Assembly (NCBI GenBank): GCA_016706255.1
Contig: JADJJZ010000029.1
Location: forward strand, 554,675 to 618,674
DNA from: Bacteroidota bacterium
GTDB lineage: Bacteria; Bacteroidota; Bacteroidia; Chitinophagales; BACL12
Length of the DNA: 64,000 nt
Direction: 5' to 3'
The position numbers and the translations under genes were made by a program. Below are positions 27,371 through 61,563 of the stretch, in pieces (the stretch's first letter is position 1; the number at the start of each line of letters is the position of its first letter). The notes beneath the pieces were generated by a model, which was not told the DNA's origin, ran no database searches, and was given only the letters and a program-made list of their open reading frames with translations.

Positions 27371-28285
27371 TTATTTTCTAACAACAAATTTATTGCTATA
27401 AACAACAGTACCGTTGTCGATTAAACGGAAAGTATAAATACCGCTTGCATAAGCAGCAAGATTTACGCTGTTCATTTCAGGTGAAAGTGTTACCACATCA
27501 ACCTTTTGACCGTTCATATTGTAAACTTCCAAAGTAACATCGTTGTTTGCAGGGTTGTTGATGTTAATGTATTCGCTTGCAGGATTTGGATAAATGTTAC
27601 GAGCAATACCATAACCTTCAAAATCTTCAACGTTGATACCACCAGTTACTTCTAAATCATCAACATACAATACTGAACCGGGAACTAATGAAGTAAATCC
27701 ACCGGAAGAAGTAATGATAATTTGCATTTGATCAGGAACTGCAGGAACAAAGTAAGTGATAGGGCAGTTAAATGACTGATAAGAACCGGAAGTTGCAGGG
27801 TCGCGATATTGGCCCATACCGATTGTATCTTCACCTAACAACATTAACACAACCACGTTCATTGTATCTGAACCTGATGGAGCATATTGATAGTAACCAC
27901 CTAATGCATCGTAAGCAGCAGTAATAGGAGCGCCACCAACAACAGCAGGTGTAAAGGTTACGAAATCGAAGCTGATAACACCAGTAGTAATTGTTCCGGG
28001 AACATCTAAAGGTGTTCCTAATACGTTTAATGTTTTAGTTTCTAAACGTGCTGCAGCAGAACCACCATGCACATTTGATGTTTCTTTGGTACAGTTACGG
28101 TCAGCAATACCAAGATCGGCAGCAATTTTATCCGGAACATCCCAACCTGATGGAACATCAGCTGAAATGCCCGATGCAAGTGACGTGTAAACTGTCCAGG
28201 CCTCAAGGTTGCCATTAGGCACCTGTCCGTAGGCAGCTGATAAAAGGGTAATAAATGTTAAAGAAAGTAGTAGACGAATTTTCAT
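27371..28285 (-). CDS. hypothetical T9SS C-terminal-domain secreted protein
   Basis: Signal peptide MKIRLLLSLTFITLLSAAYGQ. CTD (NIYPNPASEYININ...GIYTFRLIDNGTVVYSNKFVVRK). Confidence 0.7.
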   Translation of the reverse strand: MKIRLLLSLTFITLLSAAYGQVPNGNLEAWTVYTSLASGISADVPSGWDVPDKIAADLGIADRNCTKETSNVHGGSAAARLETKTLNVLGTPLDVPGTITTGVISFDFVTFTPAVVGGAPITAAYDALGGYYQYAPSGSDTMNVVVLMLLGEDTIGMGQYRDPATSGSYQSFNCPITYFVPAVPDQMQIIITSSGGFTSLVPGSVLYVDDLEVTGGINVEDFEGYGIARNIYPNPASEYININNPANNDVTLEVYNMNGQKVDVVTLSPEMNSVNLAAYASGIYTFRLIDNGTVVYSNKFVVRK

Positions 28286-33925: not shown

Positions 33926-33983
33926 CAATTGGCCTGTGGATGTAGGACGCATGCAATTCGTCCCTACATCCACAGACCAATTG
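33926..33983. repeat. type-A long hairpin element
   Basis: CAATTGGCCTGTGGATGTAGGACG / CGTCCCTACATCCACAGACCAATTG. Confidence 0.8.
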
Positions 33984-34051
33984 CTCAATTAGGTTGCAAA
34001 AGCACAATTTGAAAAAAGGGCATTTCGCAAATTGACTTTCCACTCAAAATT

Positions 34052-34112
34052 GTCCTGCATGTTATTTTGTAGGGACGTATTGCATGCGTCCTTACAAAAT
34101 AATTTGCAGGAC
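34052..34112. repeat. type-B long hairpin element
   Basis: GTCCTGCATGTTATTTTGTAGGGACG-TATTGCATG-CGTCCTTACAAAATAATTTGCAGGAC. Confidence 0.85.
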
Positions 34113-34345
34113 GCTTACGGAGCTGTTGATGACAATGATTGAAAAAATATAAATGTTTGTCCGGGATGGGGTTGCGTTTCTAAAAAAAGATTATTCTTAA
34201 AAAAGCCTGCAAAAAATTAGAACGATGATGCACCTATCTACTGCAAATAAATTCATCATATTTCCGTGTCCCAAAGGCTTGTTTTTTTATGAGAATTTAT
34301 TACAAATGGTTAAAATGTTGCTTTCACAGTTACCTCAAAAAACAT

Positions 34346-34353
34346 TATCTTAG
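34346..34353 (+). promoter_or_regulatory. conserved TAYCTTAG box (candidate -7 promoter element) upstream of paralog A
   Basis: TATCTTAG lies 16 nt before the ATG at 34370. The same box and spacing occur upstream of B and G, and 19 nt upstream of E. It resembles TAnnTTTG. Confidence 0.35.
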
Positions 34354-34369
34354 CTTTAATATTATCTCC

Positions 34370-36303
34370 ATGAAGATTATAGTATTCATACTGGTGTTCA
34401 CAGTTGGCTTTAATACGCTAGCACAAATACCGGAAATCGATTGGCAAAACACTTATGGTGGGTCAAGTTGGGATATTCCCTGGGCTATTATGCAAACACC
34501 TTCAGACAGTGGATATATAGTTGCAGGAGTTACCGAATCTACAGACGGTGATATTTTAGAAAATGCAGGTATTTATGATTATTGGGTAGTTAAATTAGAT
34601 AGTCTTGGTGAAATAATATGGCAAAAAACCTACGGTGGTTCTAGTATAGATGAATGTGAAGAAATTATTTCAACTGGGGATGGCGGCTATTTATTAGTTG
34701 GTTATACCTATTCAGACGATGGTGATATTTCATATTCGCACGGAAGTGTTGATTATTGGATTATTAAAATTAATAGTAGTGGTGAATTGGAATGGGAAAA
34801 AACTTACGGTGGGTCTAAAGGAGATTTTGGACAAAAAGCTATCATGCTGCCTTCAGGTAATTTTGTTATAATTGGCAACTCACAATCTAGCGATGGTGAT
34901 ATTTCAATGCACCACGAGGGTTTTGATACACCAGAAGACATTTGGATTATCGAAATTAATTCTTTTGGTGATTTGATTTGGGAGCATAGCTATGGTTCAT
35001 CAAATGTTGAAAATGCACGTGATATTATTTTAGATATGGATGCTATGGTAGTAACTGGTTATACATATGGGGGTTCAGACGGAGATATTGAGTCCTCTGA
35101 TGGTGCATCCGATTATTGGGTATTTAAAATAAATTTATTTGGGGACATTATTTGGGAGAGCACTTTTGGTGGTGATGATTATGACTATGGTGCATCAATT
35201 GGTCAATTGCAGAATGGCGAATATATTGTTTGCGGAACAACCTCATCTACAGATGGTGATATAATTGATTTTCATGGAGGATATTCGGATGCATTTATAG
35301 TAATTATTGACAGTCTTGGAAATTTAAAAAACTCTTTTTGCTATGGTGGAAGTAATTATGACTCAAGTTATGATTTAAAGATAGTTGACGATAATAGCAT
35401 TTTAATTTCTGGAACTTCCTCTTCAATTGATGGGGACTTAACTGAAAATAATGGTGACGCTGACTTTTGGATAATTATGGTTGATAGCTCAGGTCTTATC
35501 AAATGGCAAAAATCTTTAGGTGGTACATTAGACGAATATGCTATTTGTTTATCACTCACCCAACAACTTAATTCTTATGCTGTGGCTGGTCGCACCCACT
35601 CTTCAGATGTAGATTTAGACTTTAATCATGGTAATTATGATTTCTGGGTAGTTAAATTAGATATCTGTGAAAATAAATATTTCCTTGATAACGACGGCGA
35701 TGGTTTTGGTGATATTACTAATGATTCAAGTGCATGTGATATACCTTTGGGATATGTGATTGATTCAACCGATTGTAATGATTCATTAAATTTTATAAAT
35801 CCTTCAGTTAAAGAAATTTGCAATTACATTGATGATAATTGTAACAGTGAAATTGATGAAGGTCTAACATTAATACTTTCATTTGAAGATTTAGACAGTG
35901 ATAGTTATGGCAATGAATTAATTGATTCTATCGCATGTGAAATTCCTCCGGTTACGTTTTATCCAACACCGACTGCAACGACACCAATCCCGACATCAAC
36001 CCCGGCGCACCGGAACTCCTCAACGGCCTCGACGACGATTGCGACCAAATTGCTGATGAAGGTTTAGCAATAACAGATATTGTAAAAAATACAATAAGTA
36101 TTTTCCCGAATCCGGTAAATAATACATTATTTATTCAATCGGATGCAACACAACAAATAACAATTGTAAATCAATTAGGAGAAGAAATATTATACACAAA
36201 TTTATTTATAGGTTTAAATACAATTTCGGTAGCAGATTTTGCGAGTGGTGTGTATTGGGTGAAAGTGGAAAATGGGGAGATGGTGGTTTGGGTGAAGGAG
36301 TGA
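34370..36303 (+). pseudogene. family-1 T9SS cargo paralog A (propeller-like repeats, 2 Cys-rich MopE-like modules, CTD); single 1-nt deletion
   Basis: The listed ORF 34289..36067 ends in out-of-frame text (CEIPPVTFYPTPTATT...KLLMKV*). At 35948-35949 the sequence is CC, where paralogs have CCC (AATTCCTCCCGGTTACG). Restoring one C reads CEIPPGYVLSNTDCNDTNPDIYPGAPELLNGLDDDCDQIADEGL plus the CTD, ending at TGA 36301-36303. The real start is probably MKIIVFILVF at 34370. Confidence 0.75.
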
Positions 36304-36482
36304 GTGAGGGGCTAGATTGAAACAGCCATTGAACATCCATTGAATCAAAATTGAACAAAATTGAACGAGCCCGATAGCCGTCGGGAGAATCAAAATTGAG
36401 ATTGGTTATTCGCATTAAAATTTTGATTCAATTTTAAAATTTATAAAATTTGAAATGATGTAAACAATATTTACTCAAAATT
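36304..36482. repeat. conserved 3'-flanking module of family-1 gene blocks (ATTGAAC-rich, with an 11-bp-stem hairpin)
   Basis: AGATTGAAACAGCCATTGAACATCCATTGAATCAAAATTGAACAAAATTGAAC... Hairpin GAATCAAAATT (36387-36397) / AATTTTGATTC (36419-36429). Homologous copies at 45909-46100 and 53879-54047. Confidence 0.75.
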
Positions 36483-36801: not shown

Positions 36802-38942
36802 ATGAAAATTTATTTATTTATCCTCTTTGCTGTTTTAAACCTAACTGCACAGGCACAAGAACCTGAAATACAATGGCAAAAGGCATTTGGAGGGGCAGGG
36901 TACGATGATGCATATTCAATTTTCGAAACTTTAGACAATGGGTTTATTGTTAGCGGTGATACTTGGTCAAATGATGGGGATGTAACCGATTATAATGGAT
37001 CAGGTGACTTTTGGATTTTAAAGTTAAGTAGCGATGGAGAAGCTGAATGGAAGGAAACATATGGTGGTAGTGGTTGGGAGGAATCCTACAAAATTATCCA
37101 AACTAGTGACTTAGGATTTTTAGCGGTAGGATTTTCCACTTCAAGCGATGGAGATTTAACACTAAACCAAGGAGATCAAGATTTTTGGATTCTAAAACTT
37201 GATGAATCAGGGGCTATTCAATGGCAAAAAACTTTAGGAGGCTCAGGTTCTGATAGGGCATACTCTGTTCAACAAACAACTGATGGAGGCTATGTGGTTG
37301 CGGGACTTTCTTCGTCATCTGATGGCGATGTTACAGGAAATCATGGCGCTGCTGATTTTTGGGTAATCAAGTTAAATATTTTTGGTGATTTGATTTGGCA
37401 AAAGTCTCTAGGAGGTACACAAAACGATTATGCTAAATCCATTATTGAAATTCCGGGCGAGGGGTTTGTCGTAACTGGATATGTTGAGTCTAATACAGGT
37501 GATGTAACTGGAAATAATGGTGAGAGTGATTATTGGGTTGTGAAGTTATCAGAAGCTGGAGATATTATATGGCAAAAATGTTTTGGGGGTACAAATTTCG
37601 AATTTGCAAATTCATTAGCTCGAACAAGCAACAACGGATTTCTTATTCTTGGTTATACATTATCTGACAATGGTGATGTATCAGGTTTCCATGGTGGTTA
37701 TTCAGATTATTGGCTAATTAATATAGATAGTTCTGGAGCGTTACTTTGGCAAAAATGTTTTGGGGGAACCGCAACAGATCAAGGATTTTCTATTTGCTCA
37801 ACCAATGATAGTTCATATATACTTACCGGGTATTCTGGTTCAAATAATGGTGATGTCACAGGGCATCACGGTGGAGCGTTATACCCTGATTATTGGGTAA
37901 TAAAAATTGATACAATAGGAAATATTGTTTGGCAAAAATCATTAGGTGGCAATTCAAGTGATGAGTCTTTTTCTGTTGTCCAAACTTCAGATACAGGTAT
38001 TGCTATAGCGGGATGGGCTTTTTCTACTGATGGTGATGTTACGGGACATCATGGTGTGGCACTAAATAGAGATTTGTGGATTGTAAAATTAGGCATGCCT
38101 TGTATTGAAAATATGTTTTATGCAGATTTAGATGGTGATGGTTTTGGCAATATTTCATTAGATACATTAGCATGCGAAGCGCCCATTGGTTTTGTAAATG
38201 ATTCCACCGATTGCAACGATTTAAATCCCGAAATCCATCCCACATTAACAGATATTTGTAATGCCATCGATGATAATTGCAACGGATTAACCGATGAAGA
38301 TGCAACATTTGTTACCTATTTCGCAGATATTGATGGAGATACTTTTGGTGATATATTAAATGATTCAACTGCATGTAATGAATTAATCGGTTATGTGTTA
38401 GATAATAGTGATTGTAATGATTCTAATAATGCAATCTACCCCGGCGCCACTGAAATCTGCAACTACCTCGATGATGATTGTGACGGTATTACAGATGATA
38501 ATGTTACCTTCATTCAAAGTTTTATCGATGCTGATAACGACAATTTCGGCAACGCTGATTTTGATTCCATCGCATGCGAAATTCCTCCCGGTTACGTTTT
38601 ATCCAACACCGACTGCAACGACACCAATCCCGACATCTACCCCGGCGCACCGGAACTCCTCAACGGCCTCGACGACGATTGCGACCAAATTGCTGATGAA
38701 GGTTTAGCAATAACAGTTATTGTAAAAATACAATAAGTATTTTCCCGAATCCGGTAAATAATATATTATTTATTCAATCAGATGCAACACAACAAATTAC
38801 AATTGTAAATCAATTAGGAGAAGAAATATTACACACAAATTTATTTATTGGATTAAATACCATTTCGGTAGCAGATTTTGCGAGTGGTGTGTATTGGGTG
38901 AAAGCGGAGGATGGGGAGATGGTGGTTTGGGTGAAGGAGTGA
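36802..38942 (+). pseudogene. family-1 paralog B (about 7-8 propeller-like repeats, 3 Cys-rich modules); CTD out of frame through a 1-nt deletion in an A-run
   Basis: ORF 36802..38736 ends ...LAITVIVKIQ*. The A-run at 38724-38728 is A5, but A6 in copies A, D, G and H (GTAAAAAATAC). Restoring one A reads NTISIFPNPVNNILFIQSD...WVKE, ending at TGA 38940-38942. Confidence 0.75.
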
Positions 38943-38968
38943 GTGTGCGAAATTAAAATGAAAAAATT

Positions 38969-41202
38969 ATGTTTAAAATTCGCTCTATAAAAATATTAAT
39001 GGCATTGAAAATTAATGCTCGTTTTATTTGCATATTATTTTTTGGTTTTTCTTGTCTTTATAATAAAGCAAATGCACAAGCTACAAGTATAGAATGGTCA
39101 AATGCACTTGGCGGTCCGGGTTATGAAGATGCAACGGATGTTATTTATTCTAATGACGGAGGGTATCTGGTGGTTGCTAACTCAGGAGAAATAGGTGGTG
39201 ATGTGACAGGTTTTTATGGTGGAGCAGTAGACATTTGGTTAACTAAATTAGATAGTGCGGGAAATCTTGTTTGGCAGAAAAATTATGGGGGGTCAAATAT
39301 TGAAAAATCCCGTGCAGGTATTGCGACGATAGATGGTGGATATATTATCGTAGGCTATACTGGCTCTGAAGATCATGATGTAAGTTTTAACCATGGACTC
39401 ACCGATGCATGGGTTTTTAAAGTAGATTCAATAGGAAATATAGTATGGGAAAGGTCATATGGTGGTACAAAAAGTGAGCAAGGATGGGCGATTTGTGGAA
39501 CAGATGATGGGAATTTCGTATTCGTAGGATATAGCCATTCAAATAATGGTGATTTGACATCTCATTACGTTACCACGGCTACTTCAGACTTTTGGATTGT
39601 AAAAATCGACAATACAGGTAACATCATTTGGCAAAAATCATACGGCAGTACGGAAGATGACTATGCATATGGTGTTGTGGAGCTATTCAATGGTGATATT
39701 ACAGTCGGTGGAGTAACACAATGGGGAGATGGTGATGTAATAGGATTTCATGGCGGTATTGGGGTTGAAGATGGATGGGTAATTGATTTAGATTCTAATG
39801 GCGCATTGAAATGGAGTAAAGCTTATGGTGGTACAGACTATGACGTTATATGGGATATCACTAAGGCGTCTGATTCCACAATTCACTGTGTTGGACAAGC
39901 AAAATCATTTGATGGAGATATAACAGACCATAAAGGAACTCCGGATGATTATTATTTAGATGATTGCATGTATCTAAGGCTTGATTCTTCTGGGAATTTA
40001 CTTATAGAAAAGTGCTTTGGAGGGTCAGGCAGTGATGTTGGGTTCTCATTAAGTACAACAATGGATGGGACTGTTATATTAGGAGCTAATTCATCAAGTA
40101 ATGATGGAGATGTATCAGGACATCACGGGGGTGAATATACTAGTGATTTTTGGATAGTGAAGCTGGACTCTTTTGCTAATATCGAATGGTCTGTATCGCT
40201 TGGTGGTGATACCGCAGATGCCAGTTATTCCATCATTCAAGCACCTGATTCTGGGTATGTTACTGTTGGAATTTGTGTATCAGAAAATGGTGATGTAGTT
40301 GACCACTATCCAGGCACATTACACTGGGATTCCTGGGTGGTTAAACTCAATAAAACCTGTCCTGGAATTTTATATTATGCTGATAAGGATGGTGATGGTT
40401 ACGGTGATCCAACTGATATACAAATGTTTTGCTCAGATATGGTTGGATATGTATTAAATAATTTAGACTGTAATGATAATGATGCAGAAATTAATCCTAC
40501 AATAGCTGAAATATGTAACACGTTAGACGATAATTGTAATGGTATTGTTGATGAAGGCCTAGCATTGTTTACCCTTTTCGAGATTTAGATGGTGATACTT
40601 TTGGGAATGATACTGATTTTATAACATCGTGTCTTGAATATATTTCAGGTTTTGTTTTAGACTCAACCGATTGTAATGATACTAACGAATTTATTTTTCC
40701 GGGTGCTGAAGAACTCTGCAACTACCTCGATGATGATTGTGATGGTATTACCGATGATAATGTCACCTTCATACAAAGTTTTATTGATGCTGATAACGAC
40801 AATTTCGGAAACCCTGATTTTGATTCTATCGCATGCGAAATTCCTCCCGGTTACGTTTTATCCAACACCGACTGCAACGACACGAATCCCGACATCTACC
40901 CCGGCGCACCCGAACTCCTCAACGGTCTCGACGACGATTGTGATCAAATTGCTGATGAAGGTTTAGCAATAACAGATATTGTAAAACATACAATAAGTAT
41001 TTTCCCGAATCCGGTAAATAATATATTATTTATTCAATCGGATGCAACACAACAAATTACAATTGTAAATCAATTAGGAGAAGAAATATTACAAACAAAT
41101 TTATTTATTGGTTTAAATACCATTTCTGTAGCAGATTTTGCGAGTGGTGTGTATTGGGTGAAAGCGGAGGATGGGGAGATGGTGGTTTGGGTGAAGGAGT
41201 GA
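38969..41202 (+). pseudogene. family-1 paralog C (tandem twin of D); single 1-nt deletion in a T-run
   Basis: ORF 38969..40588 ends LALFTLFEI*. The T-run at 40575-40578 is T4, versus T5 in D at 42835-42839. Downstream sequence is colinear with D (equal length to the stop at 41200-41202) and encodes RDLDGDTFGND..., two more Cys-rich modules and the CTD. Confidence 0.8.
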
Positions 41203-41228
41203 GTGTGCGAAATTAAAATGAAAAAATT

Positions 41229-43463
41229 ATGTTTAAAATTCGCTCTATAAAAATATTAATGGCATTGAAAATTAATGCTCGTTTTATTTGCATATTATTT
41301 TTTGGTTTTTCTTGTCTTTATAATCAAGCAAATGCACAAGCTACAAGCATAGAATGGTCAAATGCACTAGGCGGCCCGGGTTATGAAGATGCAACGGATG
41401 TTATTCAATCTAATGACGGTGGCTATCTCGTTGTTGCTAACTCAAGAGAAGTAGGTGGTGATGTGACAGGTTTTTATGGTGGAGCAGTAGACATTTGGTT
41501 AACTAAATTAGATAGTTCCGGAAATCTTGTTTGGCAAAAAAATTATGGAGGTTCAAATTTTGAACAATCATGTTCCGGTATTGCGACTATAGATGGTGGA
41601 TATATTATAACCGGTTATTCTTCTTCTATGGATTTTGATGTCAGTTTTAATCATGGGCTTTTTGATGCATGGCTTTTCAAAATTGATTCAATTGGTAATT
41701 TACAGTGGGAAAAGTCATATGGAGGTTCCAAGACTGAAATAGCATGGGCAATATGTCCAACTCAAGATGGAAATTTTGTATTCGCAGGATATAGCTATTC
41801 AAATGATGGTGATTTGACATCTCATTACGGTACCACGGCTACTTCAGACTTTTGGATTGTAAAAATCGACAATACAGGTAACATCATTTGGCAAAAATCA
41901 TACGGCAGTACGGAAGATGACTATGCATATGGTGTTGTGGAGCTATTCAATGGTGATATTACAGTCGGTGGAGTAACACAATGGGGAGATGGTGATGTAA
42001 TAGGATTTCATGGCGGTATTGGGGTTGAAGATGGATGGGTAATTGATTTAGATTCTAATGGCGCATTGAAATGGAGTAAAGCTTATGGTGGTACAGACTA
42101 TGACGTTATATGGGATATCACTAAGGCGTCTGATTCCACAATTCACTGTGTTGGACAAGCAAAATCATTTGATGGAGATATAACAGACCATAAAGGAACT
42201 CCGGATGATTATTATTTAGATGATTGCATGTATCTAAGGCTTGATTCTTCTGGGAATTTACTTACAGAAAAGTGCTTTGGAGGGTCAGGCAGTGATGTTG
42301 GGTTCTCATTAAATGCAACAATGGATGGGACTGTTATATTAGGAGCTAATTCATCAAGTAATGATGGAGATGTATCAGGACATCACGGGGGTGAATATAC
42401 TAGTGATTTTTGGATAGTGAAGCTGGACTCTTTTGCTAATATCGAATGGTCTGTATCGCTTGGTGGTGATACCGCAGATGCCAGTTATTCCATCATTCAA
42501 GCACCTGATTCTGGGTATGTTACTGTTGGAATTTGTGTATCAGAAAATGGTGATGTAGTTGACCACTATCCAGGCACATTACACTGGGATTCCTGGGTGG
42601 TTAAACTCAATAAAACCTGTCCTGGAATTTTATATTATGCTGATAAGGATGGTGATGGTTACGGTGATCCAACTGATATACAAATGTTTTGCTCAGATAT
42701 GGTTGGATATGTATTAAATAATTTAGACTGTAATGATAATGATGCAGAAATTAATCCTACAATAGCTGAAATATGTAACACGTTAGACGATAATTGTAAT
42801 GGTATTGTTGATGAAGGCCTAGCATTGTTTACCCTTTTTCGAGATTTAGATGGTGATACTTTTGGGAATGATACTGATTTTATAACATCGTGTCTTGAAT
42901 ATATTTCAGGTTTTGTTTTAGACTCAACCGATTGTAATGATACTAACGAATTTATTTTTCCGGGTGCTGAAGAACTTTGCAACTACCTCGATGATGATTG
43001 TGATGGTATTACCGATGATAATGTCACCTTCATACAAAGTTTTATTGATGCTGATAATGACAATTTCGGAAACCCTGATTTTGATTCCATCGCCTGCGAA
43101 ATTCCATCCGGTTACGTTTTATCCAACACCGACTGCGACGACACCAATCCCGACATCTACCCCGGCGCACCCGAACTCCTCAACGGCCTCGATGATGATT
43201 GCGACCAAATTGCTGATGAAGGTTTAGCAATAACAGTTATTGTAAAAAATACAATAAGTATTTTCCCGAATCCGGTAAATAATATATTATTTATTCAATC
43301 GGATGCAACACAACAAATAACAATTGTAAATCAATTAGGAGAAGAAATATTACAGACAAATTTATTTATTGGATTAAATACGATTTCGGTAGCCGATTTT
43401 GCGAGTGGTGTGTATTGGGTGAAAGTGGAGGATGGGGAGATGGTGGTTTGGGTTAAGGAGTGA
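41229..43463 (+). CDS. family-1 paralog D: the only uninterrupted copy (signal peptide, propeller-like repeats, 3 Cys-rich MopE-like modules, T9SS CTD)
   Basis: 744-aa ORF. Repeats of the form W-Q-K-x-Y-G-G-S...DGGY...G-x-T-x-S-x-D-G-D-V...D-x-W-(I/V)-V-K-(L/I)-D. Cys-rich modules such as DCDDTNPDIYPGAPELLNGLDDDCDQIADEG. CTD ISIFPNPVNNILFIQSD...GVYWVKVEDGEMVVWVKE. Confidence 0.85.
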   Translation: MFKIRSIKILMALKINARFICILFFGFSCLYNQANAQATSIEWSNALGGPGYEDATDVIQSNDGGYLVVANSREVGGDVTGFYGGAVDIWLTKLDSSGNLVWQKNYGGSNFEQSCSGIATIDGGYIITGYSSSMDFDVSFNHGLFDAWLFKIDSIGNLQWEKSYGGSKTEIAWAICPTQDGNFVFAGYSYSNDGDLTSHYGTTATSDFWIVKIDNTGNIIWQKSYGSTEDDYAYGVVELFNGDITVGGVTQWGDGDVIGFHGGIGVEDGWVIDLDSNGALKWSKAYGGTDYDVIWDITKASDSTIHCVGQAKSFDGDITDHKGTPDDYYLDDCMYLRLDSSGNLLTEKCFGGSGSDVGFSLNATMDGTVILGANSSSNDGDVSGHHGGEYTSDFWIVKLDSFANIEWSVSLGGDTADASYSIIQAPDSGYVTVGICVSENGDVVDHYPGTLHWDSWVVKLNKTCPGILYYADKDGDGYGDPTDIQMFCSDMVGYVLNNLDCNDNDAEINPTIAEICNTLDDNCNGIVDEGLALFTLFRDLDGDTFGNDTDFITSCLEYISGFVLDSTDCNDTNEFIFPGAEELCNYLDDDCDGITDDNVTFIQSFIDADNDNFGNPDFDSIACEIPSGYVLSNTDCDDTNPDIYPGAPELLNGLDDDCDQIADEGLAITVIVKNTISIFPNPVNNILFIQSDATQQITIVNQLGEEILQTNLFIGLNTISVADFASGVYWVKVEDGEMVVWVKE

Positions 43464-43557
43464 GTTGGGAAAATACCCCAATTGTGAATACCAAGCCCTG
43501 TGTGAACGGCGTCTCGCCTGTCATTAGTTTTTATTAAATTTTATCACAAGTATTTAC

Positions 43558-43584: not shown

Positions 43585-45908
43585 ATGAAATCACTAATTT
43601 TTATCTACATGTTTATTTTTATAGTGCAAGCAAGATTTGCTCAAGCACCGGATATTATTTGGCAAAAATCTTTTGGTGGAAGTGATTACGACCAACCTGC
43701 TAAAATTATAACTGCTCCAGATTCTAGTTTTTTATTATTTGGTGACACGCGATCGGTGGATTTTGATATTGAGAATAATCATGGTTCACGAGATATTTGG
43801 TTATTAAACATTGATGTCAGTGGAAATTTACTTTGGGAAAATACTTATGGCGGTTCGAGCATTGATTATGGTAGATCGTTAACGATTGGTAATGATAATC
43901 AAGTATTAATGACAGGTTATACAAATTCGATAGACGGAGATGTCTCTGAATTTTATGGTATTTATGATTATTGGACTGTCGCCTCTGATTTATTGGGTAC
44001 AATTGTGTGGGGAAAAAATTTTGGTGGTAGTGAATACGATGGATCCAGAGGGATAAGTGAACTTTTAGATGGATATTTGATAATAGGTGACTCTAAATCA
44101 TCCGATGGTGATGTATTAGGGTTACATGGAATTACTAATTCAGATTTTTGGGTGATCAAAATATCTAATGAAGGCGACCTTATTTGGCAAAAATGCTATG
44201 GTTCCAATAACACAGAGCAACCAAACTCAATAGTTAAAACATTAGAAAATGAGTATATAATTGCTGGGACCACCTTAGGAGAAGGGGGCGACGTGACAGG
44301 TAATCATGGATCTACTGATATCTGGGTAATAAAAATTGATTCAGTAGGGAATTTAATTTGGCAAAAATGTTATGGTGGATCTGACGTTGATGGTATAAGT
44401 AAGATTTTAAATACACCTGATGGCGGATTTATACTCAGTGGTGAAACATATTCAAATAATGGTGATGTTTCAGGTTTTCATGGTGGAATAAATGATGGAT
44501 GGATAATAAAAATTGACAGCATTGGAAATATAGAATGGCAAAAGTGTTATGGCGGCTCTGGTAGTGATGAAATTTATTCTATTATTTTACTTGATGACGG
44601 TAATTTTTTATTCGGAGGTCGGTCTACTTCTGCAGACGGAGACTTAACTGAAAATAAGGATGGAAATGATTGTTGGTTAGTTAAAATTAACCCAGAAGGC
44701 GATATAATTTGGCAAAAATCGTTTGGAGGATATGATGAAGATGTAATTTATGATATTGTTGAAGCTGAAAATGGGGATATTATTTTTTTAGCCGAAAGTC
44801 TTTCTTCTGATGGTGATTTAACTTTAAATATGGGAAATTGGGATTTTTGGGTTGTGCGATTAGGTTATTGTACAACCAAATATTTTGAGGACACCGATGG
44901 CGATGGTTACGGAGATATTTCTTCAGATACATTATCTTGCGAATTACCCACGGTTATGTTTTAGACTCCACCGATTGCAACGATTTAAATCCCGAAATCC
45001 ATCCAACATTAACAGATATTTGTAATGTGATTGATGATAATTGTAACGGATTAACAGATGAAGATGCAACATTTGTTACCTATTTCGCAGATATTGATGG
45101 TGATACTTTTGGTGATGTATTAAATGATTCAACTGCTTGTAATGAATTAATTGGTTATGTGTTAGATAATACCGATTGCAACGATTTAAATCCCGAAATT
45201 CATCCAACATTAACAGATATTTGTAATGCCATTGATGATAATTGTAACGGATTAACAGATGAAGATGCAACATTTGTTACTTATTTTGCAGATATTGATG
45301 GAGATACTTTTGGTGATATATTAAATGATTCAACTGCATGTAATGAATTAATCGGTTATGTGTTGGATAATACTGATTGCAACGATACCAATAATGCAAT
45401 CTTCCCCGGCGTCACCGAACTCTGCAACTACCTCGATGATGATTGTGACGGAATAACAGATGATAATGTCACCTTCATTCAAAGTTTTATTGATGCCGAC
45501 AACGACAATTTCGGAAACCCTGATTTTGATTCCATCGCATGCGAAATTCCACCCGGCTACGTTTTATCCAACACCGACTGCAATGACACCAATCCCGACA
45601 TCTACCCCGGCGCACCGGAACTCCTCAACGGCCTCGACGACGATTGCGACCAAATTGCTGATGAAGGTTTAGCAATAACAGATATTGTAAAACATACAAT
45701 AAGTATTTTCCCGAATCCGGTAAATGCGATTTTATTTATTCAATCGGATGCGATACATAAAATTACTATTGTAAATCAATTAGGAGAAGAAATATTATAC
45801 ACCAATTTATTTATCGGTATAAATACCATTTCTGTAGCAGATTTTGCGAGTGGTGTGTATTGGGTGAAAGCGGAGGATCTGGAGATGGTGGTTTGGGTGA
45901 AGGAGTGA
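43585..45908 (+). pseudogene. family-1 paralog E (propeller-like repeats, 4 Cys-rich modules, CTD); single 1-nt deletion
   Basis: ORF 43585..44964 ends SCELPTVMF*. ORF 44937..45908 continues the same protein in another frame. Adding one G to the GG at 44952-44953 reads CELPTGYVLDSTDCNDLNPEIHP. Confidence 0.75.
44973..45374 (+). repeat. 2 x 201-bp in-frame tandem duplication inside paralog E (one Cys-rich module plus linker)
   Basis: GATTGCAACGATTTAAATCCCGAAAT... recurs at 44973 and 45174, and the next unit begins at 45375. The translations DCNDLNPEIHPTLTDICN(V/A)IDDNCNGLTDEDATFVTYFADIDGDTFGD(V/I)LNDSTACNELIGYVLDNT are nearly identical. There is a single copy in B (~38208-38408). Confidence 0.85.
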
Positions 45909-46100
45909 GTTGGGGGGTAAGATTGAAACAGCCATTGAGCATCCATTGAATCAAAATTGAACAAGATTGCACAAAATTGAACAAAATTGAACCATTCAGA
46001 TTGCTATCAGGAGAATTAAAATTGAGGTTGGATTTTCGCATTAAAATTTTGATTCAATTTTAAAATTTGAAATGATGTAAACAATATTTTCCTCAAAAAT
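45909..46100. repeat. conserved 3'-flanking module (copy 2)
   Basis: Homologous to 36304-36482 and 53879-54047. Confidence 0.75.
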
Positions 46101-46483: not shown

Positions 46484-49060
46484 ATGAGTAACCAAAAACA
46501 CCCCTTTTTGATACTATTGATGACTTTTGTTGTCTTTTGTAATTCTGGATATAGCCAAACACCAGACATGCGAATAGTCTATCTAAGTTCAGAGTCAGGA
46601 GAACCACTTGGCTATAATGGTAACATAGAACTTCTAAATAGTGTTTTTACCCCCAGTGGATGGGAGCATTTATACTATGAATCAATTGATACATCAGGGT
46701 TGTTTTCTAATGAAACTTGTCTTCTGTTTTTGGAGGGTAGCTATTCCACTTTTTCTGATTTGACGGATTTCTATATAGATTATTATTATGAAATCGAGCA
46801 GTATGTTTTTAACGGCGGTCACCTTTTTGTTAATATGTATTCTGCCGGTAATATATTTCTTGGATTTGATAGTATCAATAAAATTGATAATGGATTCGGT
46901 TCGATTTACGGCTATCATGATGATGATTCTTTGAATTCATTATTTTTTGGTCCACTTTATCCAATAACAAATCCCCTTGTTGGTATATACGGTGGATTTG
47001 GTCCACAAGCAGGTTATGGTACATTTTCCGGAGGTGACTATGATGTATATTTGTTTGATTTAACAGAACAATCTTTCGGAGGAGATACCTCTGCATATAG
47101 AGAAATTGCTATTGGGAAAATATTTGGTTCAGGAGAATTAATATTTGCAAATTTGACAATTGGTAATTGGGTGGACTATACTGCCACTTATAAAAATTTG
47201 CGTACAAATATTCTCTGGAAACTTTCACCATGTTTACATGCTGAAAATGACATAGGCGTTCAAGCATTAATAACTCCTGCGAATTCTTGCAATTTAACTG
47301 CTGAAGAATCTTTAAATATTTTGGTTCATAATTTTGGCTTCGCAGACCAAGATACATTTGATCTGAGTTTTCAGATTGATGGCGGTGCAATTATCACGGA
47401 ATCCTTCTCAGAAAATTTATCAGCATATTTATCTGATACAATTTCCTTTGTTGCAACTGCCGATTTTTCTGAATGTGGAGCGCATGAAATAAAAGTATGG
47501 ACTAATTTATTGAGCGATACGATATATCAAAACGATACTTTAATATATACAGTCGCGAATATATGCGCTTCTGAATCTACTATTGGTTTACCTAATGAAA
47601 TTTGCTATTTAAGTGATCTTATCATTGCCAACCCTGAGGTTGGAGGAGGTTATTGGGAAGGGCTTGGAATTATTGATGGAGATTTGGGAGTTTTAGACCC
47701 TGAAATTATAGGTGCAGGAAATGATGCTGTTATTTCTTACACATACCAAACAGCAATAGATTATACTCGCCAAATAATTCCATTTGAACCACCCGCATTT
47801 ACTGACTCAACTATTGTTTCATTAATATTAAATGATGATGTGGATACACTCTTATTACCTTTTGATTTTGTATTCTTTTCTAATTCCTACGATGTTTGTT
47901 ATCCTGCAAGTAATGGATATATTGCATTTGGGGAACCACATGACACTTGGTATATAAGCATCCCAGATGTTGGTGGCATAAACAATTTATTAGCTCTTGC
48001 AGGATATGACCTGAACCCAACAACCGGAGGAAGTATTTACTATTCGATTACCGGGTCGTTCCCTTATCGTCAATTACAATTACGATATTATGATGTACCT
48101 CTTTCAATCTCACCAGATCATTTTATTGATGTAACAACGGTATTATATGAGACCACTAATATTATTGATATATTCGTTGATAAATTGCCAGATGTTGGTG
48201 TATTAGGTTTTGTACAAGGAATCTCAAATATTGACGGAACTCAATATTATTATACAAAAACAACGGGAACTCCAGTTTGGTTTATAGGGGCAAATGATAC
48301 AGCCTTCCGATTTATTCCAACTTTATGCCCTCGTACCATTTTTGATACAATTCATATTGTTGGAAATGATACAGAAGACCTTTTAGGCCCGGATACTTTA
48401 TTTTGTTTCGGAGATAGCGTTGAACTACTGTCAAATACCAGTAGTAGTTATTATTTATGGAATACAGGGGATACAACACAATCAATTTTCGTTGACGAGA
48501 CAGGATTATATACCATTGAATTAGAATACATTTTGGGATGCAATATTATAGATACAATTAATGTTATAGAGCTAGACAGCATTATTTTAAATATTTCTTC
48601 GACACCTACAGATACAGACGTAAATACAGGTACCGCAACTGTAGAGGTGATTTCAGGTGGAGTAGCTCCATATACATATCTTTGGGACACAGGTGAAATA
48701 GCTTCAACAATTGAAAATCTTACCGCAGGTATCTATGTGGTCGAGGTTACAGACTCCTTCGGGTGCAAAACCACTGCATCTGTTGCAGTTGATAAAAATG
48801 TTTCGATTGGAGATTTTGAGACCTATAATTTATTAACTATTTTCCCTAACCCATCGACTAATTCATTTAGTGTTAAATTAAATTCAAACGTATATGAAGC
48901 AAATTGTGAATTGACTAATCTTGATGGAAAAGCAATTTTTAAAAGTAAAATTAATTCAGCTAACTTTGAAATAAACACCTCGCAATTTGTTAGAGGAGTT
49001 TATTTTTTAATAATTAGAACAAACTCAGGAAACTACTTTTCAAAAGTAGTGCTGCAATAA
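46484..49060 (+). CDS. large T9SS-secreted protein with an SprB-type repeat, unrelated to family 1
   Basis: 858 aa with a signal peptide. SprB-repeat-like segment (TATVEVISGGVAPYTYLWDTGEIASTIENLTAGIYVVEVTDSFGCKTTASVAV). CTD (LLTIFPNPSTNSFSVKLN...GVYFLIIRTNSGNYFSKVVLQ). Confidence 0.75.
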   Translation: MSNQKHPFLILLMTFVVFCNSGYSQTPDMRIVYLSSESGEPLGYNGNIELLNSVFTPSGWEHLYYESIDTSGLFSNETCLLFLEGSYSTFSDLTDFYIDYYYEIEQYVFNGGHLFVNMYSAGNIFLGFDSINKIDNGFGSIYGYHDDDSLNSLFFGPLYPITNPLVGIYGGFGPQAGYGTFSGGDYDVYLFDLTEQSFGGDTSAYREIAIGKIFGSGELIFANLTIGNWVDYTATYKNLRTNILWKLSPCLHAENDIGVQALITPANSCNLTAEESLNILVHNFGFADQDTFDLSFQIDGGAIITESFSENLSAYLSDTISFVATADFSECGAHEIKVWTNLLSDTIYQNDTLIYTVANICASESTIGLPNEICYLSDLIIANPEVGGGYWEGLGIIDGDLGVLDPEIIGAGNDAVISYTYQTAIDYTRQIIPFEPPAFTDSTIVSLILNDDVDTLLLPFDFVFFSNSYDVCYPASNGYIAFGEPHDTWYISIPDVGGINNLLALAGYDLNPTTGGSIYYSITGSFPYRQLQLRYYDVPLSISPDHFIDVTTVLYETTNIIDIFVDKLPDVGVLGFVQGISNIDGTQYYYTKTTGTPVWFIGANDTAFRFIPTLCPRTIFDTIHIVGNDTEDLLGPDTLFCFGDSVELLSNTSSSYYLWNTGDTTQSIFVDETGLYTIELEYILGCNIIDTINVIELDSIILNISSTPTDTDVNTGTATVEVISGGVAPYTYLWDTGEIASTIENLTAGIYVVEVTDSFGCKTTASVAVDKNVSIGDFETYNLLTIFPNPSTNSFSVKLNSNVYEANCELTNLDGKAIFKSKINSANFEINTSQFVRGVYFLIIRTNSGNYFSKVVLQ

Positions 49061-49262: not shown

Positions 49263-49301
49263 GGACGCATGCAATTCGTCCCTACAGCCATAGGCCAATT
49301 G
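49263..49301. repeat. type-A hairpin element, right half only (truncated)
   Basis: GGACGCATGCAATTCGTCCCTACAGCCATAGGCCAATTG. The left arm is absent. This marks the left boundary of the duplication shared with 33947 onward. Confidence 0.7.
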
Positions 49302-49369
49302 CTCAATTAGGTTGCAAAAGCACAATTTGAAAAAAGGGCATTTCGCAATTTGACTTTTCACTCAAAATT

Positions 49370-49430
49370 GTCCTGCCTGTTATTTTGTAGGGACGTATTG
49401 CATGCGTCCTTACAAAATAAGAGGCAGGAC
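49370..49430. repeat. type-B long hairpin element
   Basis: GTCCTGCCTGTTATTTTGTAGGGACGTATTGCATGCGTCCTTACAAAATAAGAGGCAGGAC. Confidence 0.85.
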
Positions 49431-49661
49431 AGTTTAAAGTTGAGGATGACAATGATTTTAAAAATGTAAATGCTTGTCCGAGATGCGTTGCGTTTCTAAA
49501 AAAAGATTATTCTTAAACAAGCCTGCAAAAAATTAGAACGATGATGCACCTATCTACTGCAAATAAATTCATCATACTTCCGTGTCCCAAATGCTTATTT
49601 TTTTATGAGAATTTATTACAAATGGTTAAAATGTGGCTTTCACAGTTACCTCAAAAAACAT

Positions 49662-49669
49662 TATCTTAG
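49662..49669 (+). promoter_or_regulatory. conserved TAYCTTAG box upstream of paralog G
   Basis: TATCTTAG lies 16 nt before the ATG at 49686, in a context identical to paralog A. Confidence 0.35.
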
Positions 49670-49685
49670 CTTTAATATTATCTCC

Positions 49686-51618
49686 ATGAAGATTATAGTA
49701 TTCATCTTGGTGTTTACACTTAGCTTTAGTGCGGATGCTCAGGTGCCTGAAATCGAGTGGCAGCGGAACTATGGCGGTTCTGGTTGGGACATTCCTTTTA
49801 AAATTTTATTTACTCCATCAGATAGTGGTTATATAGTTGCAGGCGTTTCAGGGTCTGATGATGGTGATCTTACAGAAAGCAATGGCTATGATGATTATTG
49901 GGTGGTTAAACTGGATAGCGTAGGAAACATTTTGTGGCAAAACACTTATGGAGGCTCAAGTTTTGATCAATGCAATGATATAGTGTTAACATCGGACGGA
50001 GGTTATTTATTGGCCGGATATATTTATTCAAATGATGGCGATATTACATTAAATCATGGAGACGTAGATTATTGGGTGGTTAAAATCAGTGTAACAGGTG
50101 TAATCGAGTGGCAAAAATCATTTGGTGGTGTTGAAACCGATTTTGCGAACCATATACTTACATTACCATCTGGTAATTTTATGATTATTGGCGGGTCAAG
50201 TTCTAACGACGGGGATGTTTTAGAACACCACAATACTCCTACGCTGACAAACGATATTTGGGTAATTGAAATTGACCCTATTGGCAATTTACTTTCGAGT
50301 AAATGTTATGGTTCCTATTTTGATGAAAGAGCCGGGGATTTAATTTTATTAGATGATGGCATTGCGATAGTAGGAACCACATTTGGTTCAGGTGGTGATG
50401 TTACCTCTCATGATGGTGCCACAGATTTTTGGTTATTTAAAATTGACTTCGATGGCAATATAATCTGGGATCGTTCATTTGGGAGGAGATGATTATGATT
50501 GGGGATATTCAATAGGTAAAAAAACAAACGGAGATTTAGTTATTTGTGGTATTACTTCTTCAGTCGATGGTGATATTATTGATTATAATGGAGGGACAGC
50601 TGATGCTTTGGTAGTTATAGTAGATAGTATAGGTAATTTAGAAAGTTCGCATTGTTTCGGTGGTAGTTTGTATGATGAAAGCGATGATCTAATTGTAATT
50701 GATAATAATCAAATTCTAATATGTGGTTCAACAGCCTCAATTGATGGTGATATGACAGAAAATAATGGGAGTAATGATTTTTGGATAGCCATGATTGATA
50801 CAATAGGAAATGTTCATTGGCAAAAATCACTCGGCGGTTCAATAGATGAAGCAGCTTATGCAATTGCTACAACTCCAGATGAAAATTCGTATATAACCGC
50901 AGGGCGTAGTCACTCATCTGATGTTGACGTCGAAGCAAACTTTGGGAGTTATGATTTTTGGGTAGTAAAATTAAATATTTGTGAAACGCTGTATTTTTTG
51001 GATGCAGACGGTGATGGATTTGGTGATATTACTAATGATTCAAGTGCATGTGATATACCTTTGGGATATGTTATTGATTCAACCGATTGTAATGATTCAT
51101 TAAATTTTATAAATCCTTCAGTAAAAGAAATTTGCAATTACATTGATGATAATTGCAATGGTGAAATTGATGAAGGTCTAACATTAATACTTACATTTGA
51201 AGATTTAGACAGTGATAGTTATGGCAATGAATTAATTGATTCTATCGCATGCGAAATTCCACCCGGTTACGTTTTATCCAACACCGACTGCAACGACACC
51301 AATCCCGACATCTACCCCGGCGCCCCCGAACTCCTCAACGGCCTCGACGACGATTGCGACCAAATAGCTGATGAAGGTTTACCTACAACAGATATTGTAA
51401 AAAATACAATAAGTATTTTCCCGAATCCGGTAAATAATATATTATTTATTCAATCAGATGCAACACAACAAATAACAATTGTAAATCAATTAGGAGAAGA
51501 AATATTACACACAAATTTATTTATTGGATTAAATACCATTTCGGTAGCAGATTTTGCGAGTGGTGTGTATTGGGTGAAAGTGGAAAATGGGGAGATGGTG
51601 GTTTGGGTGAAGGAGTGA
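49686..51618 (+). pseudogene. family-1 paralog G (A-like ends, diverged core); single 1-nt insertion
   Basis: ORF 49605..50492 ends WDRSFGRR*. ORF 50479..51618 continues as GGDDYDWGYSIGKK. The run at 50481-50483 is GGG, and GG would read SFGGDDYDWG, matching the family repeat. The real start is probably MKIIVFILVF at 49686. Confidence 0.75.
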
Positions 51619-51644
51619 TTGTGCGAAATTAAAATGAAAAAATT

Positions 51645-53878
51645 ATGTTTAAAATTCGCTCTATAAAAATATTAATGGCATTGAAAATTAATGCTCGTTT
51701 TATTTGCATATTATTTTTGGTTTTTCTTGTCTTTATAATAAAGCAAATGCACAAGCTACAAGTATAGAATGGTCAAATGCACTAGGCGGTCCGGATTATG
51801 AAGATGCAACAGATGTTATTCAATCTAATGACGGAGGCTATCTTGTGGTTGCTAACTCAGGAGAAGTAGGTGGTGATGTGACTGATTTTTATGGTGGAGC
51901 AGTAGATATATGGTTGACTAAATTAGATAGTTCAGGAAACCTTATTTGGCAGAAAAATTATGGGGGGTCAAGTATTGAAAAATCCCGTGCAGGAATTGCG
52001 ACGATAGATGGTGGATATATTATCGTAGGCTATACTGGCTCTGAAGATCATGATGTTAGTTTTAACCATGGACTCACCGATGCATGGGTTTTTAAAGTGG
52101 ATTCAATAGGAAATATAGTATGGGAAAGGTCATATGGTGGTACAAAAAGTGAGCAAGGATCGGCGATTTGTGGAACAGATGATGGGAATTTCGTGTTCGT
52201 AGGATATAGCCATTCAAATAATGGTGATTTGACATCTCATTATGGTACTGCAGAGACTTCCGATTATTGGATTGTAAAAATCGACAATACGGGTAATATC
52301 ATTTGGCAAAAATCATACGGCAAGTCGGAGGATGACTATGCATATGGTGTTGTGGAGCTATTCAATGGTGATATTACAGTCGGTGGCGTAACACAATGGG
52401 GAGATGGTGATGTAATAGGATTTCATGGCGGTATAGGGATTGAAGATGGATGGGTAATTGATTTAGATTCTAATGGAGCATTGAAATGGAGCAAAGCATT
52501 TGGTGGTACAGACTATGATGTTATATGGGATATCACTAAGGCGTCTGACTCTACAATTCACTGTGTTGGACAAGCAAAATCATTTGATGGAGATATTACC
52601 GACCATAAAGGAACTCCGGATGATTATTATTTAGATGATTGCATGTATTTGCAGCTTGATACAATGGGAAATTTACTAATGGAGAAATGTTTTGGTGGCA
52701 CAAGCGGCGATGCTGGATTTTCAATTTGTAAGACATTTGATAGTGGAGAAGTGATAGCCTGTAATTCTGCGAGCGATGATGTGGATGTGGCAGGCCATCA
52801 TGGTGGGACAGACCTTTACGATTATTGGATTATAAAATTAGATTCTTTAGCAAACATTGAGTGGAATATTAATATTGGAGGAATTTCATCTGATGAAAGT
52901 TATTCGATTATTCAACTTACAGATTCTGGATTCTTAGCAGTTGGTCTAAGTAATTCAATAGATGGAGATGTCTTAGACCACTACCCCGGACCTTCCAACT
53001 GGGATTCCTGGGTGGTTAAACTCAATAAAACCTGTCCGGGTATTTTATATTATGCAGATAAAGATGGTGATGGTTTTGGTGATCCAACTGATATACAAAT
53101 GTTTTGCTCAGATATGGTTGGATATGTATTAAATAATTTAGACTGTAATGATAATGATGCTGAAATTAATCCTACAATAGCTGAAATATGCAACACGATA
53201 GATGATAATTGTAATGGTATTGTTGACGAAGGTCTTGCGTTGTTTACGCTCTATCGAGATTTAGATGGAGATACTTTTGGGAATGATACTGATTTTATAA
53301 CATCGTGTCTTGAATATATTTCAGGTTTTGTTTTAGACTCAACAGATTGTAATGATACCAATGCGTTAATTTTTCCGGGTGCTGAAGAACTCTGCAACTA
53401 CCTCGATGATGATTGTGATGGTATTACAGATGATAATATCACTTTCATACAAAGTTTTATTGATGCTGACAACGACAATTTCGGCAACGCTGATTTTGAT
53501 TCCATCGCATGCGAAATTCCACCCGGTTACGTTTTATCCAACACCGACTGCAACGACACCAATCCCGACATCTACCCCGGCGCCCCCGAACTCCTCAACG
53601 GCCTCGACGACGATTGCGACCAAATTGCTGATGAAGGTTTAGCAATAAGAGATATTGTAAAAAATACAATAAGAATTTTCCCGAATCCGGTAAATGCGAT
53701 TTTATTTATTCAATCGGATGCAACACATCAAATTACAATTGTAAATCAATTAGGAGAAGAAATATTGCACATAAATTTATTTATAGGATTAAATACAATT
53801 TCGGTAGCAGATTTTGCGAGTGGTGTGTATTGGGTGAAAGCGGAAAATGGGGAGATGGTGGTTTGGGTGAAGGAGTGA
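51645..53878 (+). pseudogene. family-1 paralog H (C/D-like); 1-nt deletion in the signal-peptide T-run
   Basis: The ATG at 51645 encodes MFKIRSIKILMALKINARFICIL, as in C and D. The T-run at 51714-51718 is T5 versus T6 in C and D, so this frame stops after 40 codons. The body ORF 51704..53878 can start only at a TTG, giving MHIIFGFSCLYNKANAQ, which lacks the charged n-region. Confidence 0.7.
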
Positions 53879-54047
53879 GTTGGGGGTAAGATTGAAACAG
53901 CCATTGAACAGAATTGAACAAAATTGAACAAAAATTGAACCATTCAGATTGCTATCAGGAGAATTAAAATTGAGGTTGGATTTTCGCATTAAAATTTTGA
54001 TTCAAATTTAAAATTTGAAATGATGTAAACAATATTTCCTCAAAATT
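53879..54047. repeat. conserved 3'-flanking module (copy 3)
   Basis: Homologous to 36304-36482 and 45909-46100. Confidence 0.75.
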
Positions 54048-61521: not shown

Positions 61522-61563
61522 ATAATACTTCTTATGTTAATAAGTTTTAAATTCAACAATAGA

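Follow-up and report, generated by a model that had tools for sequence, protein, structure and literature searches.

Mosaic structure of two adjacent propeller genes in an uncultivated Bacteroidota, and its probable origin in a recent exchange between tandem copies

How does a gene in a tandem array come to have one nearest relative at its beginning and another along most of its length? The question is raised by a 64,000-nt stretch of a Bacteroidota bacterium genome (assembly GCA_016706255.1, contig JADJJZ010000029.1, positions 554,675 to 618,674 of the forward strand), hereafter called the window. Between 34.3 and 53.9 kb of the window, seven paralogous genes, A, B, C, D, E, G, and H, lie on the plus strand in two sub-arrays, A-B-C-D-E and G-H. 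Three of them, C, D, and H, form a close subfamily and appear to encode paralogs secreted via T9SS, the type IX secretion system, with a signal peptide, a seven-bladed SBBP-like propeller, three cysteine-rich repeats of the MopE type, and a C-terminal sorting domain (CTD). Outside the divergent blocks described below, they are about equally distant from each other (∼5-6% at the nucleotide level, synonymous divergence dS 0.2-0.3). C and D are neighbors, with 2,260 nt from one start to the other; the stop codon of C, as restored by repair of a frameshift (41202), lies just 26 nt ahead of the ATG of D. An earlier reading, made from the sequence only, described C as a mosaic of H-like and D-like parts and attributed it to segmental gene conversion.

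The nearest-relative switch in C

We aligned C, D, and H at the nucleotide level and examined the sliding-window identity and the list of variable sites. Both the identity profile and the site-by-site pattern bear out the mosaic and the switch of the nearest relative. At 38729-39276, the three genes are 88-100% identical and the signal is mixed, with 14 differences between C and D at the 308 positions of 38969-39276. In the following segment, block 1, C differs from H at 6 of 269 positions (97.8% identity) and from D at 63 (∼77%). The last site at which C agrees with H is 39545, and the long run of sites at which it agrees with D starts at 39568. From here on, C and D are almost the same. The tract of near-identity contains 6 differences per 1252 positions (99.5% identity), namely, substitutions at 39570, 40005, 40053, 40055, and 40716 and one 1-nt insertion or deletion (indel) at 40574; it includes identical runs of 434, 519, and 141 nt and extends beyond the called stop codon of C. 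The offset between the two copies is 2260 up to 40574 and 2261 thereafter. At 40797-41195, the mixed signal returns (22 differences between C and D at 399 positions).

The boundaries given by the sequence-only reading require adjustment. The similarity of C to H, placed there at 39261-39570 with the H counterpart at 51941-52250, is real but covers 39277-39545, the counterpart being 51952-52220 (offset 12675). The switch is as sharp as claimed (∼20 nt), but it falls at 39545|39568 and not near 39570-39590, while the near-identity of C and D, thought to run from ∼39580 to 40575 at the constant offset of 2260, spans 39546-40796 with the change of offset noted above. The amino acid differences listed for this region, I/T at 40005 and LST/LNA near 40050, were correct. 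Finally, H had been considered strongly diverged in this region, in propeller blades 6-7. This is true only for 39955-40315 (block 3), with a nucleotide identity of 64% between H and the C/D pair; over the remainder of the tract, the identity of H to both copies amounts to 93-98%.

Recombination-breakpoint tests, which the same reading had called for, are significant. The best MaxChi breakpoint is 39545|39568 (chi2=167), and none of 2000 permutations yielded a value as high (p<5e-4). A 3SEQ-type random walk gave no equally extreme result in 200,000 permutations (p<5e-6). The divergence of C and D is 0.48% in the tract (6/1252) vs 5.1% in its flanks (36/707; Fisher p=2.8e-11). The coordinates of these and other features are collected in Table 1.

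Table 1. Genes, sequence blocks, and frameshifts of the propeller family, and other genes with a secretion tail, in window coordinates
Feature	Position	Strand	Remarks
Block 1 in C	39277-39545	+	blade 2 and half of blade 3; H-type (H counterpart 51952-52220, offset 12675)
Block 1 in D	41537-41805	+	old, foreign-looking sequence found in D alone
Breakpoint interval	39546-39567	+	22 nt without a difference among C, D, and H (ATGGTGATTTGACATCTCATTA); encodes the conserved NGDLTSHY blade motif
Tract of C-D near-identity	C 39546-40796, D 41806-43057	+	6/1252 differences, 99.5% identity
Block 3	39955-40315 (361 nt), H 52630-52990	+	end of blade 5 and blades 6-7; divergent type only in C and D
Copy A	34289-36067; frameshifted tail to ~36305	+	from the list of open reading frames
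Copy B	36802-38736; frameshifted tail to ~38944	+	from the list of open reading frames
Copy C, open reading frame	38969-40588	+	539 aa; signal peptide, seven-bladed propeller, first MopE repeat, premature stop
Copy C, out-of-frame continuation	40575-41202	+	two further MopE repeats and T9SS C-terminal sorting domain (frame translation)
Copy D	41229-43463	+	744 aa; sole family member in the window with an unbroken frame
Copy E	43585-45908	+	
Copy G	49605-51618	+	
Copy H	51645-53878	+	ATG 51645 out of frame via T6->T5 deletion at 51713; called open reading frame starts at 51704
3' tails (last MopE repeat and T9SS CTD)	35762-36305, 38410-38944, 40653-41204, 42914-43466, 45417-45911, 51069-51618, 53329-53881	+	
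Frameshift in A	~35949		C3->C2
Frameshift in B	~38724		A6->A5
Frameshift in C	40571-40574	+	T4 where D has T5 (D 42831-42835)
Frameshift in E	~44947		one base missing next to a GG run
Frameshift in G	near 50480		exact site not localised
Frameshift in H	51713		T6->T5
Further Por_Secre_tail genes	16951-20916, 27371-28285, 46484-49060, 54141-55889, 57340-58233, 60404-61318, 61534-63027		

Age and ancestry of the blocks

To tell recombination from uneven rates, we took outgroups out of public assemblies: L001, a contig from the short reads of ERR1414268, with 99.7% identity to H; O1, an H orthologue with ∼90% amino acid identity (L164/L165); and O3 and O4, with ∼60% amino acid identity. Synonymous and non-synonymous divergence (dS and dN) were estimated by the Nei-Gojobori method on the codon alignment. 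In the flanks and conserved parts, dS among C, D, and H is 0.21-0.31. Over the tract, dS between C and D is 0-0.011 vs 0.21 in the 5' flank and 0.23 in the 3' flank. In block 1, C and H are close (dS 0.09), and D is distant from both (dS 0.87-1.0, dN/dS 0.19). In block 3, the distance of C and D from H is saturated at synonymous sites (proportion of synonymous differences, pS, 0.78), with dN of 0.29-0.30. For comparison, dS between H and O1 in the two blocks is 0.36-0.56. Throughout the blocks, the tract, and the flanks, dN/dS stays at 0.1-0.25. As dS is high and dN/dS is low, the divergent blocks are old sequence under purifying selection, which predates the split from O1, and not fast-evolving regions.

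The blocks also differ in their genealogy. Quartet sites with O1 support the CH|D,O1 grouping in block 1 by 7:1 and the CD|H,O1 grouping in the tract by 137:1 (Fisher p=2.6e-10). This conflict of topologies could not be produced by rate variation. As far as sequence comparison can tell, the C/D pattern is one of recombination and not of uneven evolutionary rates, and it combines three of the features by which gene conversion would be recognized: a statistically supported switch, a tract younger than the flanks on both its sides, and conflicting topologies.

When the sites are polarized with O1, 48 of the 61 sites in block 1 at which D differs from C and H are derived in D; of the 129 sites in block 3 that set C and D apart from H, 107 have the derived state in C and D. 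In the protein alignment, H, L001, O1, and, largely, O3 and O4 are of one common type in both blocks. Since the orthologues carry the same type as H, the H type is ancestral in blocks 1 and 3; D has two old, foreign-looking blocks and C has one, and no such block occurs in H. In its 5' block, the H-like sequence of C thus represents the default state and provides no evidence of import from H. The divergence of C and H in block 1 is lower than their background divergence (2.2% vs 6.6%, p=0.003); an older exchange between C and H is possible, although not required by the data. The segmental conversion between paralogs proposed earlier survives as an exchange between C and D, which is the best explanation of the 1.25-kb tract of near-identity. 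What did not survive is the transfer of the 5' block from H and the oddity of H in blades 6-7, as it is C and D that are odd there; nor is C favored over D as the recipient.

Neither the window nor the 120 closest family members yielded a donor of block 1 of D or of block 3 of C and D. The old blocks have their best non-self matches at the equivalent positions of C, H, O3, and O4, with 58-74% amino acid identity. Short-query protein searches with block 1 of D together with the C/D block 3, and with the junction region of C, produced only matches with at most 48% identity; they returned proteins no longer than ∼1.75 times the query and missed C itself, and are uninformative on donors. A scan of GTDB species genomes and JGI metagenomes with D revealed distant relatives only (at most 43%), with the exception of one short tail fragment at 94%; these collections contain neither the source genome nor close strains. 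A search of public assemblies for proteins exactly matching D and C gave no match. The contig with the tail fragment (L084; JGI Ga0116161_1020693, locus 2-613) opens inside the family tail and is 94% identical to residues 467-744 of D at the amino acid level. Its origin may be the same population or a sister one, and it could supply the downstream context of another array end.

Possible histories of the C/D tract

With moderate confidence, we ascribe the 1.25-kb C/D tract to a recent two-sided exchange between adjacent tandem copies, that is, to gene conversion. The starting state would be three paralogs ∼5% apart, with block 1 carried by D, and block 3 by either C or D. The old blocks themselves would be imports from unsampled divergent alleles or islands that escaped homogenization. 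A RecA-type non-reciprocal exchange between misaligned C and D (or, equivalently, a double crossover between the misaligned copies) would then have copied 39546-40796 from one gene to the other, spreading the 361-nt block of very old sequence that forms blades 6-7 to both copies. On its 5' side, the tract ends right at the border of the 77%-identical block 1 of D, and the exchange might have stopped there from lost homology as heteroduplex extension failed. In this scenario, C looks like an H/D chimera because it kept the ancestral H-like block 1 beside the exchanged tract. The three sequences are compatible with either direction of transfer, C to D or D to C, and D could equally be the recipient.

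Several considerations weigh against this history. Several histories with at least three events account for the data about as well. Only one assembly supports the C/D junction, no independent assembly containing C or D, and this assembly is probably a Nanopore-based metagenome bin with homopolymer errors in this very gene family. In addition, block 1 of D and block 3 of C and D have been seen nowhere else, be it in the window, among the 120 closest members, or in the short-query searches.

Alternatively, C and D might be products of a recent tandem duplication. A 2.26-kb unit of the C/D ancestor with block 3 and the H-type block 1 would have been duplicated, block 1 of D would have been overwritten from an unsampled donor, and the ends of the unit would have diverged via exchanges with other paralogs. 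Such a duplication would account for the exact 2,260-nt register, the 1.25-kb near-identity, and a second identical run at 38868-39064, and later exchanges are plausible in the 3' flank, as it lies within the tail module common to all paralogs. The 5' flank is harder to reconcile with it. In the window, 38969-39276 has counterparts only in C, D, and H, and here C and D are as far apart (dS=0.21) as either is from H. Polarization by O1 reveals derived changes private to C, D, and H at 5, 4, and 5 sites, respectively, and these would have to be explained by extra imports from unseen donors. The private changes indicate that C and D are old paralogs rather than a fresh duplicate, and therefore we prefer conversion; duplication, needing at least as many events, seems rather unlikely.

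A different concern is the assembly itself. Six of the seven family genes are interrupted, and five of the interruptions have been localized to 1-nt deletions in homopolymers of 2-6 nt. Insertion of one T after position 40574 of C yields a 744-aa protein collinear with D, encoded by a repaired coding sequence of 2235 nt and ending in VWVKE before the stop codon. In L001, the run disrupted in H is intact and the 744-aa frame is open; the same contig confirms the H version of both variable blocks. Homopolymer indels are a known error of the R9.4.1 Nanopore chemistry, according to PMC9262707. The source is probably a Nanopore-based metagenome-assembled genome (MAG). Consequently, the 539-aa open reading frame (ORF) of C is probably an assembly artefact and the real gene probably encodes 744 aa, and the interruptions in general look like unpolished Nanopore error concentrated in repeats rather than pseudogenization. 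Phase variation at these sites seems unlikely, since the runs are only 2-6 nt long and that of H is unbroken in an independent assembly. An unsystematic look at the large ORFs in other parts of the window revealed no obvious split pairs.

Two further observations concern individual copies. At 39570, a private G->T substitution in C makes a valine of the glycine (G201 of D, in the HYG motif) that at least 90% of 121 family members retain. This change and the frameshift are the only hint that C may truly be in decay. In H, all five mismatches to L001 fall within 35 nt (52291-52325), beyond which the two are identical over 2.5 kb. C and D have the base of L001 at all five sites, and O1 has it at four. 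The two versions, GGCAAGTCGGAG vs GGCAGTACGGAG, look like a compensating +1/-1 indel pair. The cluster would be due either to a local consensus error or to a micro-conversion.

Given such errors, the consensus of C could be a chimera of strains or paralogs, or polishing could have homogenized C and D in a long-read metagenome assembly. Related MAGs bear CANU 'tig' names from Danish work on activated sludge, in which R9.4.1 Nanopore reads went through CANU, Racon, Medaka, and, at the end, a round of Illumina Racon; we infer that the window is linked to it. The five 1-nt homopolymer deletions, of which that in H is contradicted by an independent contig, the frameshift in the sixth copy, G, and the 35-nt cluster of mismatches in H all fit an error-prone consensus. 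However, these are single-base errors at a rate of ∼0.3%, which cannot make 1.25 kb identical where the H-type is 64% identical, and long reads have no difficulty in bridging a tandem repeat of 2.26 kb. Beyond either end of the tract, the differences between C and D are strong, so that this is no spurious duplication. Moreover, the breakpoint is at a sensible place, a conserved motif at the edge of the drop in homology, and the same mosaic and concerted pattern is seen in the rest of the family. We therefore consider an artefact unlikely and take the junction as presumably faithful.

Lastly, an origin of the blocks without recombination, by lineage- or region-specific acceleration under positive selection or targeted hypermutation like that of diversity-generating retroelements (DGRs), is barely credible: the variable blocks do coincide with entire blades of a secreted propeller, a place at which diversifying selection would be plausible, but synonymous divergence is raised as much as non-synonymous (dS from 0.9 to saturated, dN/dS ∼0.2), the C/D tract with dS ∼0 lies beside flanks at 0.2, the topologies of the blocks conflict, and the substitutions involve all base types, not adenines specifically. 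Both blocks were considered as DGR targets and rejected on this substitution spectrum; the window contains no template copy either. Explanations by positive selection only or by rate heterogeneity are ruled out by dS.

The propeller family and its evolution

The predicted proteins were characterized mainly on the example of D. It has both a sorting domain (PF18962, 40.7 bits, cut-off 27; TIGR04183, 34.5 bits, cut-off 23) and a predicted signal peptide, as expected of a T9SS type A cargo; the same would apply to C only with the frameshift repaired. Three repeats of PF11617 (MopE) score 101 bits in D, above the cut-off, and one repeat scores 40.8 bits in C as called. By this score, D is a putatively metal-binding repeat protein of the MopE type. 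In the AlphaFold model of D (predicted local distance difference test, pLDDT, 89.9), a helix at residues 3-31 precedes a seven-bladed propeller at residues 41-460, with blades of ∼60 residues. The closest solved fold is the SBBP propeller of CylK (Foldseek E=3.5e-25, 23% identity; PDB 7fh8, 7roo), on which the predicted propeller of D superposes. CylK, an enzyme of cyanobacteria that performs Friedel-Crafts alkylation, has neither MopE repeats nor a T9SS domain, and no shared function is implied. Membership in the LipL53 family of SBBP propeller lipoproteins (NF047494) was rejected, the score being 34 bits vs the equivalog cut-off of 400 bits. C as called is identical to the NCBI protein MBK7443825.1, and H matches MBK7443833.1.

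Each of the seven copies is equipped with a start codon and encodes a signal peptide, propeller, MopE repeats, and CTD; the parts of the gene have had different fates. The last ∼550 nt, encoding the third MopE repeat and the CTD, are 84-96% identical among all seven paralogs, while the propellers of A, B, E, and G are only ∼40% identical to those of C, D, and H at the amino acid level. The tail of O1 is only 57-59% identical to those of the paralogs, while its propeller is ∼90% identical in amino acids to that of H. This indicates that the tail module evolves in concert within this genome. A similar picture is seen when A and G are compared (33945-36305 vs 49263-51621): the 345-nt upstream region and the signal peptide are 96-98% identical, the tails are 91-98% identical, and the propellers only 57-69%. 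A and G each head a sub-array, and this suggests that they share a promoter module, the arrays being possibly operon-like. Recombination is pervasive in the family, and conserved end modules with variable propeller blocks are thus general in it.

As to the surroundings, a gene with SprB repeats, unrelated to the family, sits between E and G (46484-49060). The window is rich in T9SS cargo, with at least seven more genes carrying a Por_Secre_tail domain (Table 1); they include a 1321-aa CotH/lamin-tail protein, the SprB-repeat protein, and another MopE/CTD family member, at 54141-55889 on the minus strand. E contains an internal direct repeat with a period of 201 nt (44952-45463 vs 45153-45664, 76% identity), which is one additional MopE-type repeat unit relative to its relatives. 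A scan of ten flanking genes revealed no recombinase.

Interlocus, or ectopic, gene conversion and concerted evolution are well documented in bacterial multigene families such as tuf genes, rRNA operons, and opa genes of Neisseria. The propeller genes resemble these cases in the two-sided tract of near-identity set in older divergence, in the homogenized end modules, and in the breakpoints located in short identical stretches. Unlike a textbook conversion, the C/D tract holds a highly divergent internal block and abuts a second one that escaped homogenization; also, the genes are T9SS cargo genes of an uncultivated Bacteroidota known from sequence alone. Read in this way, the C/D case is ordinary, well-known interlocus gene conversion with concerted evolution in a tandem family, and involves no new mechanism.

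Programmed antigenic variation from cassettes operates in pilE/pilS of Neisseria, vlsE of Borrelia, and tprK of Treponema. Shared with such systems are an array of related sequences, conserved flanks, variable internal segments, and segmental non-reciprocal transfer. In the propeller array, however, all copies are complete, with their own start and signal peptide, and there is one recent event only. A pilE/pilS-like system, with a single expression site and promoterless truncated cassettes, was rejected: this arrangement is not found here, and the frameshifts look like sequencing errors.

Within this secretion system, the closest published parallel is that of the T9SS surface proteins Kgp, RgpA, and HagA of Porphyromonas gingivalis, in which domain rearrangement and allelic exchange have produced mosaics unrelated to the genome phylogeny (PMC5266723). 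In both cases, T9SS surface proteins of Bacteroidota are diversified by homologous recombination of domain-sized blocks. In P. gingivalis, these are alleles of pathogen strains and cleaved adhesin domains, whereas here they are tandem paralogs in one genome and propeller blades.

It is conceivable, but unlikely, that the arrays are a standing diversification system, in which the homogenized 5' module, made up of upstream region and signal peptide, and the 3' module, with MopE repeats and CTD, serve as anchors for recombination, and ancient, maintained blade-sized blocks are shuffled among copies and strains. If so, the population would hold many combinations of binding surfaces, e.g., under frequency-dependent selection driven by phages, predators, or substrates, and the C/D tract would be one freshly caught event.

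For practical purposes, the family presents two traps: in annotation, homopolymer errors make probably intact genes look like pseudogenes, and in phylogeny, no single tree fits the genes. For the biology of these bacteria, the C/D pair is a clean and dated case in which recombination within a genome has reshaped a T9SS-secreted family of propeller proteins, here of an uncultivated Bacteroidota, and the persistence of very old, blade-sized blocks in otherwise homogenized genes is a hint of selection for diversity of the propeller surface.

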